IMG/VR virus record: IMGVR_UViG_2563366895_000004
Reading direction: 5' to 3' (one strand)
Source of the DNA: a virus
Taxonomy: Duplodnaviria; Heunggongvirae; Uroviricota; Caudoviricetes
DNA length: 28,177 nt
Made by a program: the position numbers and the translations under genes. Numbering within the stretch: the first letter of the stretch is position 1; the number at the start of each line of letters is the position of its first letter. This document shows positions 9,020 through 23,427 of the stretch, piece by piece. The notes below the pieces were generated by a model. The model was given only the letters and a program-made list of their open reading frames with translations, was not told the DNA's origin and ran no database searches.

Positions 9020-9226
9020 CTTCATTTTCACTTTTTTAAATCCAACGACAGACGGCTGGCATTTAAGTATTGTGAAATATTATCAAATGTAATCATCATT
9101 GATTTACAAAAGATACATTTTGCCCCGAAAGGATTCATGTCAGAAACATCAAAAGATGATGTTCTATACTGGGAACCATGACAACACGGGCATCTAAAGT
9201 GAATATGGTTTGTAATATTGTCTACC

Positions 9227-9439
9227 TCAAAGCGCCACTACATGAACAGCGGCAGGACCTTTAGGTCCGTTCTCAATACCAAATTCAACTTCCTGATTCT
9301 CAGTTAATGTTTTGAAATCGTTGCTCTGAATTGCTGAGAAATGGACAAACACATCTTTGCTGCCATCTTTCGGCGTGATGAAACCAAAACCTTTTTCAGG
9401 GTTAAACCATTTCACTAAACCAGTCATTTTGTTAGACAT
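9227..9439 (-). CDS. cspI: Cold shock protein, CspA family
   Basis: 70 aa, '[38 protein letters not shown]...' with RNP1/RNP2-type motifs. Long AT-rich upstream region (9440..9800) typical of csp 5'UTRs. Symbol by Qin context. Confidence 0.8.
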
Positions 9440-9802
9440 AATTATTACCTTTTGAAGAAATTAGCCCTTGGGCAGAATGGTCCGAAAAAAAATATCAGAG
9501 AGAAAAACCAACAAGGAAATCTCAAGAGGTACAAATAATAAAATTATAACAATGACTGCTTCAGATAAATTTGTAACAAACCAGAACACCATTAACGCAT
9601 GATTAACCACCCATAGCAAGGATTACTTTTGTAAAGAAAAACACAGCAATGAAAGAATAGCTTTATTTATTAATAATAACGTGTCATTCTGATTAAGACC
9701 TTTTATCTTACCCTTAAGATTTCAGGAATTTTGGCTCATGGAAGAGTCCTTTTTATTTAAATTTTACATTCCGCGATGTAAATGTTCCGATTTAATATTA
9801 CC

Positions 9803-16759: not shown

Positions 16760-16915
16760 TTACTCCTCAGGTTCGTAAGCTGTGAAGACAGCGACCTCCG
16801 TCTGGCCGGTTCGGATTCGTACCTCGCAGAGGTCTTTCCTCGTTACCAGTGCCGTCACTATGACGGTTAAACAGATGACGATCAGGGCGATTAACATCGC
16901 CTTTTGCTGCTTCAT
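16760..16915 (-). CDS. hokD: Hok-family type I toxin (HokD/RelF)
   Basis: 51 aa 'MKQQKAMLIALIVICLTVIVTALVTRKDLCEVRIRTGQTEVAVFTAYEPEE' matches recalled RelF/HokD. The ORF track extends it to 16972 (in-frame leader). Confidence 0.85.
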   Translation of the reverse strand: MKQQKAMLIALIVICLTVIVTALVTRKDLCEVRIRTGQTEVAVFTAYEPEE

Positions 16916-17565
16916 AGCCTGCTTCTCCTTGCCTTCCGGCACGTAAGAGGCTAACCTACATGTGTCTAGCATGAAATTGGCCTCAGATTAATGTTAAGCG
17001 TCTTGCAGGACGCGTAATGTTAACTGGGGCTTTTCTCTATCTGCCTTTGGTGTTCATGCCCGAGGCAGATAGCCTCAAGCACCCGCAGCCATTCTACTTA
17101 ACTACCTTTACCTCGCCAATATGAAATCAGTCAGAAAGGCGATCCATAAGAACAATAGCAAGACAATAAATCGCCATTACAGCCGTAATAGCCAGCGCAC
17201 ATTTGAGAACCAGCACCACAACCTCCTGTATTGGACGTACACCAGTCCTGATAAATATGAGGCTGTCTCGTCCGTGATTCAATACAACTATTGGGTATGG
17301 TTTCTCTGATTTTTCTGTGGAAATGGAGCTCAACCACTAGTCACCACCAGCACTTCTTTTAATACGCAAAGTCCGACGCAAGCCAACAGGTTCAATTTCA
17401 TATATATGAATTTTAAGCAGTATTCACCTACACGATTATTAGCAATTTCCTGAATATATGATGGAGTGTCTTGACGATTTTAGACCAGAAACGCCCTCCA
17501 CGTATTTCTGAGCGTACGCAACATATGTTATGGCAAATGCGAGCATATGGTAGAGTCAAATAAGT

Positions 17566-17596
17566 AAGAGCCACCCGCAGGTGGCTCTTACTTTTA
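17566..17596. terminator. Hairpin (possible bidirectional terminator) overlapping the stop codon of the 591-aa gene
   Basis: Perfect 9-bp stem 'aagagccac'/'gtggctctt' with loop 'ccgcag'; T/A-rich flanks on both sides. Confidence 0.5.
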
Positions 17597-19369
17597 CTCT
17601 TGCAATTCGATGATCTGCTCTTTACCTAGTAGATGATTAATAATATTTAATACTTTTTCTCTGTTCTGGAAGAATCTTGCTATATAACTATTGGGGAAGA
17701 CTTCCTGTATGTGATTATAAGTATCAGAAGCCAGCTCTATACATTCCTCCAGTGAAACGTTTCGGCTATAAGAGAAGATGTGATTCTCCACAGAGGAAAC
17801 TTCTATTTTATTCATGAGTATGGATATTAAAACATAATTTCCATGAATCATTATTTGATGAATCTGCTTCTGATTTTCCATATCTACTGATAGTAGTTTA
17901 ACTATACTTTCTTGCAATATATCATTTGCTAATCTATAAGCATTTACTTTATTTATTATATCTAAACCGGTAGGACCATTTTCAGCTGGGAATACTTTTT
18001 CATAAAGACCTCCCCAGCTTTCAAAAAAACGTCCTCTATTTAGTTTTAAGGAAGATATCAATGTTTCATCTTTAGAGGCACACACTAATGCGTTTAAAGC
18101 ATCATCAATATCAATGGTATTACCACCTGTCTGGCTGGAGTCTTCTTGCCTGAGTAGTTTGTAGCTATATCCGCCAATAAAGTTTATTTCTCTTTGTATT
18201 CTTTGTTGCTCGGGCCTCTGTGATGAGAAATCTCTTCCAGTAACCCTGTTTTGTGTATTGTTGAATTTAGTGACAGAGGTTAAAAAATCTTCTTTTGCTG
18301 CACTGATAAATCTAATGCTCACCTTGATTAGATCTTTTTTTTCTTCGGGTAAAGAGTTGAACACTTCACCAATAGTGCTTACAGTTTGAGCTCCATTTAT
18401 TATACTCAGACTTTTAAAACTAAATAGCCCGTACTTCCTGCTTGTACTTAAGTTGATCATGCTTTCTTCTACATCACTATATACAGCAGTTATCCCATTG
18501 TTATAGTACCAAAAATTCTCCGGCTTTTCACTTAATGTTTTCTTTATCCCAGAGTTTATGGATGAATTACCGAGGACACTTCTTATATTTTTCTCGAACA
18601 GAGAGTACTTGTACTTTTCCCACCAGTCGTATAGGATCCTTGCGGATATTGTTCCGTATATTGCTTTATAAGGTTCTGCTATCTCTCCATAACTTTCAAG
18701 GTGAACATTGCTAACATTTATAGATTTTGATCGATCATTAGAAAGACCATCCATTATCACTTGTATACCTGCCGGCTCGAATAGCACTGAATACTCATCT
18801 CTATTCTCTATATCTTTAAATAATAGAGACCGATTCTGAACCTTTTCCCAAAACTCTATGTCTGATTTTACTTCTTCGCTTGGCTCATGAACCCCTGTAT
18901 ATATAAATACACATATACATTTATATGTAAATCCTGAGATTGCTTCAATTATGGAGTCTTTGTTTCTTAAAAACCTTTCGTTAAATGTTGTAAAGTCGCT
19001 GGCTATTACTTTTGCGCATGCGTCTTTGAATCTTCCGAATTCTCTTGTGGTTATAGAACCGTCGCCATTTTTAATATATTTTGACTGAACTATTACTATC
19101 TTTCTCGAATTTTTATTAACATAAACTGCATCTATCCCGCCATCATCTTTTCCATCGCAGACAGCATTAGCAGCTAACTCAGGGTCTGGTTCATCACCAT
19201 ACAAGCTGATTGCATGCGCAGCTACACAGCGTGTAATTAGAGTTTCTTTCCTATGCTCTCCTACGGAATTAATATCTTTCATATCAATAAAAGTTCCGTA
19301 TATAGACTCTAATTGATTAGTTATGCGTACTAAACCTGCTGTTTGCGTGGCTTTGTCGTACTGGGACAT
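17594..19369 (-). CDS. Putative abortive-infection / phage-defence protein (AIPR-like; N-terminal PD-(D/E)xK-like motif)
   Basis: 591-aa AT-rich ORF with own promoter and terminator. 'DGGIDAVYVNKNSRKIVIVQSKY' fits a D...(E/Q)xK nuclease motif; 'NNGIT' and 'INGAQT' motifs. Family assignment is from memory and needs an HMM search. Confidence 0.5.
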   Translation of the reverse strand: MSQYDKATQTAGLVRITNQLESIYGTFIDMKDINSVGEHRKETLITRCVAAHAISLYGDEPDPELAANAVCDGKDDGGIDAVYVNKNSRKIVIVQSKYIKNGDGSITTREFGRFKDACAKVIASDFTTFNERFLRNKDSIIEAISGFTYKCICVFIYTGVHEPSEEVKSDIEFWEKVQNRSLLFKDIENRDEYSVLFEPAGIQVIMDGLSNDRSKSINVSNVHLESYGEIAEPYKAIYGTISARILYDWWEKYKYSLFEKNIRSVLGNSSINSGIKKTLSEKPENFWYYNNGITAVYSDVEESMINLSTSRKYGLFSFKSLSIINGAQTVSTIGEVFNSLPEEKKDLIKVSIRFISAAKEDFLTSVTKFNNTQNRVTGRDFSSQRPEQQRIQREINFIGGYSYKLLRQEDSSQTGGNTIDIDDALNALVCASKDETLISSLKLNRGRFFESWGGLYEKVFPAENGPTGLDIINKVNAYRLANDILQESIVKLLSVDMENQKQIHQIMIHGNYVLISILMNKIEVSSVENHIFSYSRNVSLEECIELASDTYNHIQEVFPNSYIARFFQNREKVLNIINHLLGKEQIIELQE

Positions 19370-19660: not shown

Positions 19661-20116
19661 TCATTTCACATTTGAACTAATGCACTTTAATATCGTTACT
19701 TCAAAATGCTGAACATTTCCCTGATAAAACGCCAGTATGCGTTGCATCACTTCGCTCTTCCGGCACTCGCGACAGATTATGTTTAGACGACTGTCGTAGC
19801 GACGTATTTCTCCGTCAGGTAATGACCAGATAAGGTCCGGATCAACCACAGCAGGTTTCTTCACCTTTGCCCTCGAGAGTTTTTTGCGGGCGTTTTGCCA
19901 GTCCTTACGCGCCTGTTCAGACGGGAATAACCCGTAGCCGGAGTTGTATACATCGCCACTGGCTACCAGCTCTCTGGCAAGAACGCTCATCAGATATCTA
20001 GTCGCACCTGTTTTAGCTTCCAGTTGCCGTAACGTCTCACGACCGCTCTGGCGCACGAGTTCCACCACCTGCCCTTTAATTTTTTCCCGCTCTTCTTGTG
20101 TAAAAACTTTTGCCAC
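19661..20116 (-). CDS. Hypothetical protein in the replication module (position of helicase-loader/P)
   Basis: 151-aa ORF directly downstream of the O-like gene; no Walker motif; no family recognised. Confidence 0.5.
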   Translation of the reverse strand: MAKVFTQEEREKIKGQVVELVRQSGRETLRQLEAKTGATRYLMSVLARELVASGDVYNSGYGLFPSEQARKDWQNARKKLSRAKVKKPAVVDPDLIWSLPDGEIRRYDSRLNIICRECRKSEVMQRILAFYQGNVQHFEVTILKCISSNVK

Positions 20117-20156: not shown

Positions 20157-21176
20157 TTATCCTCTGAAACCAGGCGGAATTTCTGTATCCGGTTCAGAAA
20201 TATGATTAACACAACGCTGTACAGGTGAACGTCCCAGGCGGATGACCAGTTCGTCCCATTTTTCGCGGAGCTTTGACGGGCTCATGATGTTTTTTACCCA
20301 GAATGGATCTCGCTGAACCCGACCAAACATTTCGCAAATTTGTCTGTGGCTTCTGCCATCCAGCATCCGCATTGTGCGCACGTCATTGGCCCAGGCAGTC
20401 CAGTTAGGCTCTTTTGGTCGCATGATCTCGCCATCATCACTGGCTGCCTGTTCGTAGAGACCCACGATCCGCCCCCAGATCCACTGCGCACACGCCAAAT
20501 CCTCCCTGCTACCCCACTGGCGTTTTTTCGCACTAAACACAACCGCGTCGGAGTTCCGGTTTAAAAAATCCTGTTCAGTCGTCTGCGGGTTCGGTTGCGA
20601 AGCTTCCGGACGAAAAGTGTTTTTATTCTCTGTAGTAATCTCTGTTGTATTCTCTGTAAGATCATCAGGCCATTTTGACCCGATGACATTGGATCGTTTT
20701 GAACCAATGGAGCGTTTCATTTTGACCTCTTCCATCGTGTCATTTTGACCTGATGGAGCGGCGCATTTTGAACCGATGGATTCGTTCAATTTGCCACCAT
20801 CTAAAAGCTCGCTCCCATAGTTGATCGTGTAGAAATTGGTCATATCGCGCTTTGATTTATTGAGCTTTTCACAACGCAAAAGCCCCAGCGTTTTCAGACT
20901 TGCAAACGCGCGCTTTAACGTTGACTCTGACCAGAATGGGAACTGTTCCAGCCATTGTTCCGTTGTGTTATAAATCCAGCGAACACCATCACATTCCATG
21001 CCGGAGTTGGTATCTCTCAACCAGTAGTGCAGTTGTTGCAAAACAATGGCTTCGTTTAAGCCAATTTTCATTGCCAGCTGCGTGTTTATAACCAGTGGGC
21101 GTTCAGCAAAAAGAAGGCTCATAATTCCATCCAGCTTTTTGTTGGTATTGCTGTCGATACGCAAGTTTGAAAGCAA
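20157..21176 (-). CDS. Phage replication initiator (O-like / replisome organiser); start may be the internal Met at 21122
   Basis: Position after the cII-like gene; internal origin iterons within the coding sequence encode the repeated peptide 'SIGSK / VIGSK'; N-terminal HTH-like region. Confidence 0.65.
   Translation of the reverse strand: MLSNLRIDSNTNKKLDGIMSLLFAERPLVINTQLAMKIGLNEAIVLQQLHYWLRDTNSGMECDGVRWIYNTTEQWLEQFPFWSESTLKRAFASLKTLGLLRCEKLNKSKRDMTNFYTINYGSELLDGGKLNESIGSKCAAPSGQNDTMEEVKMKRSIGSKRSNVIGSKWPDDLTENTTEITTENKNTFRPEASQPNPQTTEQDFLNRNSDAVVFSAKKRQWGSREDLACAQWIWGRIVGLYEQAASDDGEIMRPKEPNWTAWANDVRTMRMLDGRSHRQICEMFGRVQRDPFWVKNIMSPSKLREKWDELVIRLGRSPVQRCVNHISEPDTEIPPGFRG
20670..20800. repeat. 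Origin-like iterons (5-6 direct repeats, about 22-23 bp period) inside the O-like gene
   Basis: Repeated 'cattttga(a/c)c(c/t)gatgg' units at about 20671, 20694, 20718, 20741 and 20764, followed by 'tctctgt' repeats at 20620..20665. Confidence 0.6.
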
Positions 21177-21624
21177 TTGCTTTTTCTATAAGTTCGTCAG
21201 TTTCACGATCCACTACGGCAGGATCAGCAAAAAGCAGTCCGGACTCCACCACATCGCCATATTCTTTGTTTAACCCGGCGATCATGCACGTGATGCTTTT
21301 TCCGTCAGTAATTTCACGATACAACCTGAAATCATTAATCCGGATAGCCTCCATAATTGCAGGCACTAGCGCCGTGAACTTTTCACGCTTATCCCTGGTG
21401 TCGATAGCCTTCCAGCGTTCAAATATCTTCACTCGATTAACGCCAAGCGCTCGCTGATCAATCGCGCCACCTTCATATGTGACACGCTGAACATCGATGT
21501 TCGGGCGCTCTTTCAAAGCCCAGAATGCTTCAGTGATTAATATCGTCGCCTGCTCCTGTGTCATTCCTGGTCGACATATCCAGGCATCCAGAGCCTCACG
21601 AGCCTGTTCAGGAGTGATTTTCAT
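21103..21624 (-). CDS. YdaT-like protein (cII position)
   Basis: 173 aa; 'FERWKAIDTRDKREKFTALVPAIMEAI' resembles recalled Rac YdaT; immediately downstream of dicC. Confidence 0.5.
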   Translation of the reverse strand: MKITPEQAREALDAWICRPGMTQEQATILITEAFWALKERPNIDVQRVTYEGGAIDQRALGVNRVKIFERWKAIDTRDKREKFTALVPAIMEAIRINDFRLYREITDGKSITCMIAGLNKEYGDVVESGLLFADPAVVDRETDELIEKAIAFKLAYRQQYQQKAGWNYEPSFC

Positions 21625-21838
21625 TGTTCAACCGCCCCGCCCGCTTCGTCTTACGATATTCATCATAAACTTTGGGATCATACTGAAGCTCCCCGCCAGA
21701 TGCCTCCTGTAGACGCATCGCGCGACCTTCGGGAACTAAATCCCCTTTCCAGCTATAAAGCGAAGCCAAACGAATACCTGCTGCTTGTGCAAGTTTTGTT
21801 TTTGAACCGAAATACAAAAGAGCGTCAGTTTTAAGCAT
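21608..21838 (-). CDS. dicC: DicC (Cro-like regulator)
   Basis: 76 aa, divergent from dicA; sequence 'MLKTDALLYFGSKTKLAQAAGIRLASLYSWKGD...' matches recalled DicC. Confidence 0.85.
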   Translation of the reverse strand: MLKTDALLYFGSKTKLAQAAGIRLASLYSWKGDLVPEGRAMRLQEASGGELQYDPKVYDEYRKTKRAGRLNNENHS

Positions 21839-21853
21839 TTAAAACACCTTTAT

Positions 21854-21919
21854 TGTTAGCCATAACTAACAAGATAGATGTTAACAAAAACATAGTCAAT
21901 ACGATTTAGCATTAGCTAA
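21854..21919. promoter_or_regulatory. dicA/dicC divergent promoter-operator region
   Basis: Palindromes 'tgttagccataactaaca' (21854..21871) and 'ttagcattagctaa' (21906..21919) between the divergent genes. Confidence 0.55.
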
Positions 21920-23369: not shown

Positions 23370-23427
23370 TTTCTGGTGACGTTTGGCGGTATCAGTTTTA
23401 CTCCGTGACTGCTCTGCCGCCGTTTTT
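23370..23427 (+). ncRNA. dicF: DicF small regulatory RNA (ftsZ-targeting) with intrinsic terminator
   Basis: 'tttctggtgacgtttggcggtatcagttttactccgtgactgctctgccgcc' followed by 'gttttt' matches recalled DicF (about 53 nt). Ends are approximate. Confidence 0.8.

Follow-up and report, generated by a model that had tools for sequence, protein, structure and literature searches.

In phage lambda, the replication origin lies within the initiator gene O, where it occupies nucleotides (nt) 349-475 and comprises four 18-bp iterons at nt 349-433, spaced 20, 24 and 23 bp apart, together with a 38-bp AT-rich stretch. Phage SPP1 (G38P/oriL) also has an origin within its initiator gene, and plasmids of the RepA_N type carry iterons inside the rep coding sequence and give their initiators a host-specific C-terminal domain. 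In E. coli K-12, the Rac origin oriJ is still active in a defective lambdoid prophage (PMC3945230). Rac has a similar gene neighbourhood to the one described below, with a cro-like gene (YdaS), a cII-like gene (YdaT), an initiator and DUF977. Rac differs in its initiator (YdaU) and in having a DnaC-like YdaV. Here we examine a 28,177-nt stretch of DNA (hereafter the window; IMG/VR record IMGVR_UViG_2563366895_000004), in which positions 20616-20799 very probably constitute, judging by their sequence, the cognate replication origin of a lambdoid phage inside its own initiator gene, laid out as ori-lambda is inside O. Origins of the lambda type are already well known and the finding is in that respect ordinary for a lambdoid phage; this member is unannotated, and the parts of it that merit follow-up are a covarying iteron code, sequence-conserved 12-mers and a DnaT-like tail on the initiator. 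The principal elements are as follows.

20157-21122, minus strand: O-type replication initiator gene, 321 amino acids (aa), 966 nt, ATG at 21122
20665-20799, minus strand: iteron array of six 19-bp imperfect palindromes, five good and one degenerate, nt 324-458 of O
20616-20662, minus strand: AT-rich segment, presumed DNA unwinding element (DUE), with three 12-bp units at 20624-20659 (nt 464-499 of O)
20799-21092, minus strand: N-terminal winged-helix domain (N-domain), aa 11-108, presumed origin-binding, AlphaFold2 predicted local distance difference test (pLDDT) 70-87
20235-20585, minus strand: C-terminal domain (C-domain), aa 180-296, homologous to that of lambda O, modelled as helical, pLDDT 63-82
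20160-20222, minus strand: C-terminal tail VQRCVNHISEPDTEIPPGFRG, the last 21 residues of O, 16 of 21 identical to the C-terminus of E. coli DnaT

Anatomy of the probable origin region

A preliminary description of the window had placed direct repeats within the O-like coding sequence, and their presence there was borne out by Tandem Repeats Finder (a period-23 array at 20697-20780 and a period-12 array at 20627-20658), by a repeat search (copies 23 or 24 bp apart, plus three 12-mers TATTCTCTGTAR at 20624-20659) and by shuffling: the best 9-mer has five copies in a 270-nt zone, a number reached in none of 500 codon shuffles and none of 500 mononucleotide shuffles. The five to six repeats with a period of about 22-23 bp proposed at that time can now be given precisely as five good units and one degenerate unit, at successive spacings of 23, 23, 23, 23 and 24 bp. 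The 16-mer put forward as the direct repeat has five matches in the 28-kb window with up to three mismatches, as against 1.16 expected, four of which fall within 20671-20779. A 19-bp imperfect palindrome centred on TCAAAATGA describes the functional unit better than a 16-mer direct repeat does. Three 'tctctgt' repeats, said to follow the array, are there as well, although their unit is in fact 12 bp long and reads ACAGAGAWTACW on the coding strand. An early reading of the array as asymmetric, plasmid-style direct repeats was dropped once the consensus units of the wider family, described below, showed the 19-bp palindrome. The six units of the window match that family consensus to differing degrees.

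20781-20799: 12 of 19 matches, degenerate
20758-20776: 15 of 19 matches
20735-20753: 17 of 19 matches
20712-20730: 13 of 19 matches
20689-20707: 14 of 19 matches
20665-20683: 17 of 19 matches

The proposed resemblance to lambda, with the origin inside O, extends to the relative position within the gene (nt 344-499 of O in the window, nt 349-475 in lambda): in both, the origin falls in the linker that separates the origin-binding domain at the N-terminus (presumed, for the window) from the recruiting domain at the C-terminus. Both have dyad-symmetric iterons of roughly 19 bp with a central A-tract, an AT-rich, purine-skewed stretch on the promoter-distal side, a cI-cro-cII-O operon layout and homologous C-domains. 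The number of complementary arm pairs, counted in the same way, is 3-7 of 8 in the lambda units and 3-6 of 8 in those of the window. The lambda unit ATCCCTCAAAACGAGGGAT and the family consensus TCGGGTCAAAATGACCCGA agree in length and dyad layout and have a common centre, TCAAAAYGA, and differ in the outer arm bases; this shared centre hints at a distant kinship of the lambda and window origin-binding domains. At the protein level the bridge between these N-domains is weak, with phrog_678 matching lambda O at 1.7e-35 and the window protein at 2.5e-6, and Pfam Phage_rep_O matching lambda O at 5.7e-36 and the window protein not at all. The two systems differ further in that the AT-rich part of the window is made of sequence-conserved 12-mers, and in that the window has no P gene; its O carries a DnaT-like tail and is followed by a Ren-like DUF977 gene.

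A single consensus DnaA box occurs in the entire window (20097-20105), fewer than expected by chance, so this is not a DnaA-box origin. The TTGACC cores were considered as -35 boxes of antisense promoters and dropped, since a sigma-70 scan gave no promoter-like site in the iterons, and no Rfam family overlaps 20600-20800. Three GATC (Dam) sites lie in or beside the origin, at 20660, 20692 and 20823 (20660-20826), where about 0.7 would be expected, which may be chance; in Brevibacillus the iteron arms themselves are GATC (TGATCAAATTGATCA).

Iteron arms change together across lineages

To place the window units in a family, we compared 80 loci, one per species, that encode the N-domain at 47-100% identity and span Enterobacterales, Pseudomonas, Acinetobacter, Desulfuromonas, Campylobacterales, Thiothrix, Bacillus, Neobacillus, Brevibacillus and Staphylococcus. 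The core GGTCAAAATG, with at most one mismatch, occurs 8.3 times per kb in nt 300-520 of these 80 genes and 0.028 times per kb elsewhere (both strands). A de novo search found three to six repeated units in this zone in 71 loci, and 179 of the 216 spacings among them are 22-24 bp or multiples thereof. Taken over 67 loci of many phyla, the units have as their consensus a 19-bp palindrome, TCGGGTCA-AAA-TGACCCGA, which becomes perfect in the consensus units of E. ruysiae and E. albertii (TCGGGTCAAAATGACCCGA). The core varies by lineage under a per-locus consensus rule, the palindrome GGNCA-AAW-TGNCC, with both arms changing together.

GGTCA..TGACC: E. coli, Klebsiella, Xenorhabdus, Proteus, Staphylococcus
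GGGCA..TGCCC: Pseudomonas, Yersinia
GGACA..TGTCC: Mixta, Hafnia
GTGCA..TGCAC: Campylobacterales
GATCA..TGATC: Brevibacillus
GTTCA..TGAAC: Bacillus

Among 56 distinct consensus units from these related sequences, the pair formed by columns 6 and 14 is T:A in 30, G:C in 15, A:T in 6 and C:G in 2, and 80.1% of arm cells are complementary compared to 67.6% in shuffles, a level that none of 500 shuffles reached and that lies above the 19-40% of slid controls. Coordinated change of both half-sites is what one would predict for a two-fold symmetric DNA-binding dimer. With a family of more than 10,000 representatives behind it, the covarying iteron code offers a ready system for studying the co-evolution of initiator and origin.

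Palindromes could also act as structures rather than as duplex sites for O, that is, as single-strand hairpins forming a primosome assembly site for host PriA/PriB/DnaT. The region does fold better than its shuffles as single-stranded DNA (ssDNA; z of -2.0 and -3.0), the units are palindromic, and the DnaT-like tail of O hints at a link to the restart primosome. The arms, however, are just 5-8 bp long around an AAA centre and imperfect in the window, and the predicted folds pair different units with each other instead of giving one hairpin per unit. Moreover, arrays accompanied by the same N-domain occur in Staphylococcus and Bacillus phages, whereas the DnaT-like tail was seen in Enterobacterales loci only. 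To our knowledge, Firmicutes have neither DnaT nor PriB. Arms that change in pairs from lineage to lineage are also easier to reconcile with co-evolution with a dimer that reads sequence than with a helicase that reads structure. We consider the hairpin explanation extremely improbable.

Selection acts on the DNA of the array

The preliminary description had read the repeats as encoding the peptide SIGSK. Three units do encode xIGSK; the others read as PSGQN, EEVKM and, in the degenerate sixth, GGKLN, since the 23-bp period is not a multiple of three and the core occurs in each of the three reading frames. Repetition of a peptide (SIGSK and TENTTE) along a flexible protein linker, with no role for the DNA itself, would explain the three xIGSK units, the 12-mers, which give T-E-x-T in the same frame in every locus examined, and the disorder predicted for the linker, of which residues 109-175, exactly the repeat-encoded part, have a pLDDT of ~25 in the AlphaFold2 model. 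It would not explain why a 23-bp period is kept when it sends the units through three frames as different peptides, why the palindromes have covarying arms, which are meaningless at the protein level, or why synonymous sites of the 12-mers are frozen across phyla. Nucleotide conservation also runs the wrong way for it. Identity to the Citrobacter, Raoultella and Enterobacter homologs is 82-85% in the ori stretch (nt 319-500), compared to 69-73% in the part that encodes the folded N-domain (42-52% at third codon positions), so that DNA encoding a disordered linker is better conserved than DNA encoding a folded domain, the reverse of what selection on the protein would be expected to give. By these comparisons the iteron units are selected as DNA and not as peptide, SIGSK is a by-product rather than the selected feature, and we hold a purely peptide-level repeat to be very improbable.

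Sequence-conserved 12-mers in the AT-rich segment

The putative origin continues into the AT-rich segment at 20616-20662, which has 30% G+C, compared to 48% for the gene, and 64% purines on the coding strand; it is unpaired in the ssDNA folds of both strands. Relative to O transcription, its 12-mers lie downstream of the iterons, and they encode TENTTEITTE, always in the same reading frame. The codons used are far more uniform than this peptide would call for: across the 58 of the 80 loci that have the Thr/Glu-rich segment, glutamate is encoded by GAG in 91% of cases, compared to 47% elsewhere in the same genes, and threonine by ACA or ACT in 97%, compared to 41%. The array is kept, with its synonymous sites frozen, from E. 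coli to Bacillus, Brevibacillus, Thiothrix and Campylobacterales, and the triple 12-mer pattern was found in at least 120 viral contigs. Among the 120 listed, 93 encode an N-domain of the window type upstream in the same frame, about 7 are truncated or frameshifted, and in about 20 the preceding N-terminal sequence is a different one, winged-helix-like as judged by eye.

These patterns argue that the 12-mers are conserved as sequence and not merely for their AT content, which suggests a sequence-specific single-strand contact of the kind made by plasmid Rep proteins on 13-mers. Rep proteins bind one strand of the DUE 13-mers sequence-specifically (PMC4081077). A similar reading of one 12-mer strand is the interpretation we prefer, though it is unproven: the array may be a sequence-specific origin element, one strand of which is read by the initiator, the helicase or the primase after melting. 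It may be common to thousands of phages, from Enterobacterales to Bacillus, Staphylococcus, Campylobacterales and Thiothrix, and may stand behind several kinds of winged-helix domain.

The initiator and its modular construction

The coordinates of the O-like gene agree with those of the RefSeq coding sequence in E. coli strain 573 and of the mEp460 gene annotated as 'Primosomal protein I', and a mechanical call of the open reading frame (ORF) starts further upstream, at a TTG at 21176. Its product had been proposed to be an O-like initiator, an assignment upheld by a match to phrog_391 ('replication initiation O-like', 3.5e-91), by a C-domain homologous to that of lambda O and by a predicted winged-helix N-domain. 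BLASTP aligns the C-domain with lambda O at 34% identity over 153 aa (E 2e-26), and phrog_277 and phrog_2357 are shared. The N-domain model has the topology helix-helix-hairpin-helix-helix-wing (AlphaFold2), and its best matches among Protein Data Bank (PDB) folds are N-domains of RepA_N plasmid initiators such as pSK41 and pTZ2162 RepA (4pql, 4pt7 and 5kbj; E 0.013-0.07). The window protein differs from that group in lacking any Pfam sequence match, RepA_N included, and the fold match is weak (E ~0.01, template modelling score 0.5 on the target); RepA_N elements are, besides, plasmids and not phages. Sequence searches add little. Pfam at E<=10 gives sub-threshold winged-helix matches only, Pfam and NCBIfam together report no family for the protein bar a 20-residue DnaT match, and PDB sequence searches with the protein and with an N-domain profile returned nothing except the DnaT tail. 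A relationship to the SPP1 G38P type finds no backing either, as Pfam shows no Phage_rep_org_N in the window protein and the sole PHROG 'replisome organizer' match (phrog_4880) falls in the C-domain.

The N-domain itself belongs to a very large family that Pfam does not model, with 10,302 cluster representatives at E<=1e-3 and 4,527 at <=1e-10, and most of its 4276 close proteins are named 'hypothetical protein'. Homologs at 46-75% identity occur in Klebsiella, Hafnia, Providencia, Pantoea, Staphylococcus and Bacillus phages, and in some proteins of 400-880 aa two stretches match the N-domain. In Staphylococcus phages, genes annotated as 'DnaD domain protein' encode an N-domain 46% identical to that of the window and carry the same GGTCAAAATGACC units at 22-23 bp spacing. 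What the same N-domain and GGTCAAAATG units are coupled with varies: a lambda-O-like C-domain in the window, Phg_2220_C in Klebsiella, Providencia and Bacillus, and DnaB_2 in Staphylococcus phages. Members from Gram-positive hosts, with DnaD/DnaB_2 or Phg_2220_C C-domains, are followed by a helicase or loader gene. The reverse combination is found in Shigella phage SfII, where the C-domain of the window (44% identity from residue 85 on) is attached to an unrelated HTH_36 N-domain. SfII DNA is 88-89% identical to the window directly after the 12-mers, and where the window has its iterons, SfII has an unrelated array of five TCAAAATCTGACCCG repeats at 15 bp. In these comparisons the iteron array travels with the N-domain, not with the C-domain, and such swapping of N-domain and iterons is the classical modular design of lambdoid O genes.

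A DnaT-like tail and the absence of a loader gene

The resemblance of the last 21 residues of O to DnaT rests on PDB sequence matches (2ru8, 6aep and 9zbt_D) and on positions 160-179 of the NCBIfam DnaT model. DnaT-like tails also close the C-terminal end of three other PHROG initiator families, and an ending P-x-G-F-R-G is found in SfII O and in about 20 initiators from Enterobacterales whose C-domains differ. Of the 80 loci, about 20 carry the tail, and all of these are from Enterobacterales. Most of these tailed loci continue with an ORF of ~130-165 aa that lacks Walker A and resembles the DUF977 gene of the window by eye. Tailed initiators have no neighbouring Walker-A (loader or helicase) gene; in several tail-less loci a Walker-A protein follows instead. 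No P-, DnaC- or DnaB-type loader gene lies directly downstream of O in the window or nearby in mEp460 and PhiR42_1, and the DUF977/Ren-like gene that does follow has no Walker A motif and is not a helicase loader by Pfam, PHROG and a motif check.

Loader-less lambdoid initiators may recruit the host helicase by mimicking the DnaT C-terminus, by way of the PriA/PriB/DnaT-DnaC restart pathway. Our literature search found no described contact or function for the DnaT C-terminal tail, a 2026 preprimosome structure paper being silent on the last ~20 residues, and no paper on DnaT-like tails in phage initiators. If mimicry does occur, these phages would in addition give a clue to what the tail of DnaT itself does. 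That the 12-mers are a sequence-specific element and, at the same time, that tail mimicry replaces a P-like loader is a tentative proposal that we think less likely to be right than wrong; 12-mers and tail are in any event leads on how a host helicase is loaded without a phage loader.

A probable origin in a defective Qin-type prophage

The window represents an E. coli lambdoid prophage of the Qin type (DicA/DicC/DicB/DicF), inserted beside rspB/ynfA, with a host major facilitator superfamily transporter gene at 1-1284; from 6470 to 28177 it is colinear with the Qin region of strain 573 at 99.2%. That the prophage is defective, as previously suggested, is confirmed by the ORF at 3197-6778 (minus strand, 1193 aa), in which the first ~110 residues of terminase gpA (GpA_ATPase) are fused in frame to a tail-fibre-like C-terminus with Peptidase_S74. 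Nothing is left between the terminase stub and the tail-fibre C-terminus, and the morphogenesis genes for head and tail are gone. This ORF is, on its sequence, the scar of a deletion that took out all head and tail genes, and such a prophage can no longer make particles.

The replication module has fared differently. PhiR42_1 (48.7 kb), HannyBb and mEp460, all deposited as full-length phage genomes, carry this O and ori as well, the 300-bp ori region being 98-99% identical, in keeping with the earlier suggestion of a potentially functional phage origin. In PhiR42_1 and mEp460 the module reads cI(DicA)-cro(DicC)-cII-O-DUF977, and the stretches examined contain no further gene for replication. 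The corresponding genes of the window form an early right operon on the minus strand.

21871-21899, minus strand: pR-like sigma-70 promoter match (TTGACT-17-TATCTT by promoter scan), upstream of dicC
21608-21838, minus strand: dicC, Cro-like (Pfam P22_Cro; RefSeq annotation), in the O operon, 5' of O
21103-21624, minus strand: cII-like YdaT-family gene (Pfam YdaT_toxin; PHROG cII-like; RefSeq), directly 5' of O
19661-20116, minus strand: DUF977/Ren-like gene (Pfam DUF977 1.7e-29; phrog_142 Ren-like), directly 3' of O

Transcripts from the pR-like promoter would cross dicC, the cII-like gene and O, and hence the origin. On this layout, loss of the DicA repressor would let the promoter express O and drive transcription across the origin, and winged-helix dimers would bind the six 19-bp dyad-symmetric iterons. 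With the iterons about two helical turns apart and a central A-tract in each, the DNA might be wrapped or bent into an O-some-like complex, and the resulting stress could melt the adjacent AT-rich segment of three ACAGAGAWTACW 12-mers. The lambda-O-like C-domain with its DnaT-like tail would then bring in the host helicase machinery directly, as the module is without a P/DnaC/DnaB-type gene. Binding and replication by an initiator of this type are inferred from anatomy. Since O and origin are intact, the prophage origin is probably still competent and can probably fire in situ after derepression, although particles are no longer made. A competent origin of this kind, in a prophage otherwise regarded as dead, could drive local over-replication after derepression, could hinder related phages and could be acquired through recombination.

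Loss of the morphogenesis genes lends itself to a different account, in which the iterons are true O-binding sites that have become a relic, or a decoy titrating the O of incoming phages of the same type (exclusion). Such a role would suit the retention of the Qin-type O/ori region in 1381 of 5426 complete E. coli genomes (at least 80% of a 2.3-kb query covered) and the AIPR abortive-infection gene beside the module, and there is precedent in that cloned ori-lambda iterons inhibit lambda-type phages (PMC3349717, PMC4488673). Against a relic or decoy, O keeps its full length and shares about 97-98% identity with the protein of the deposited phage genomes, the AT-rich 12-mers are intact though titration would not need them, and a single chromosomal copy makes a weak decoy. 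Exclusion is also compatible with origin function and the two may coexist; as a replacement for a working origin, we regard it as improbable. The origin reading gives a function to a gene that is mostly a 'hypothetical protein' in RefSeq; roughly one complete E. coli genome in four has a full-length match to this region.

Several points weigh against the reading of 20616-20799 as a working cognate origin. The window units are imperfect, agreeing with the family palindrome at 12-17 of 19 positions and forming 3-6 of 8 arm pairs; covariation was counted on related sequences, so independent events are overstated; and the sequence fits either the 23-bp units or the 12-mers as the winged-helix target. 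The fold match of the N-domain to initiators is weak (best E 0.013), with generic MarR/CodY winged helices close behind, the N-domain is not Pfam Phage_rep_O (PF04492) and the whole protein has no Pfam family at E<=0.01. The module also has no loader gene of its own through which a helicase could be recruited, and our literature search found no paper on the mEp460/Qin-type origin.

Neighbouring genes and other features

The DUF977/Ren-like gene occupies the slot held in lambda by P and then ren, and mEp460 and PhiR42_1 have the same neighbour downstream of O ('LygF'). Further along the minus strand, between the DUF977 gene and hokD/sok, lies an AIPR-family (abortive infection) gene of 591 aa at 17594-19369. 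In mEp460 this slot holds a different 449-aa ORF, and in PhiR42_1 a methyltransferase, an insertion sequence element and relBE; because its contents differ in this way, the slot 3' of the replication module looks like a variable site for cargo or defence genes. Rfam matches above the gathering score were obtained for the DicF small RNA (23371-23422, plus strand), for the sok antitoxin RNA (16910-17084, minus strand) beside hokD and for a cspA-type thermoregulator 5' leader (cspI; 9200-9585, minus strand), all of which are expected Qin prophage cargo.

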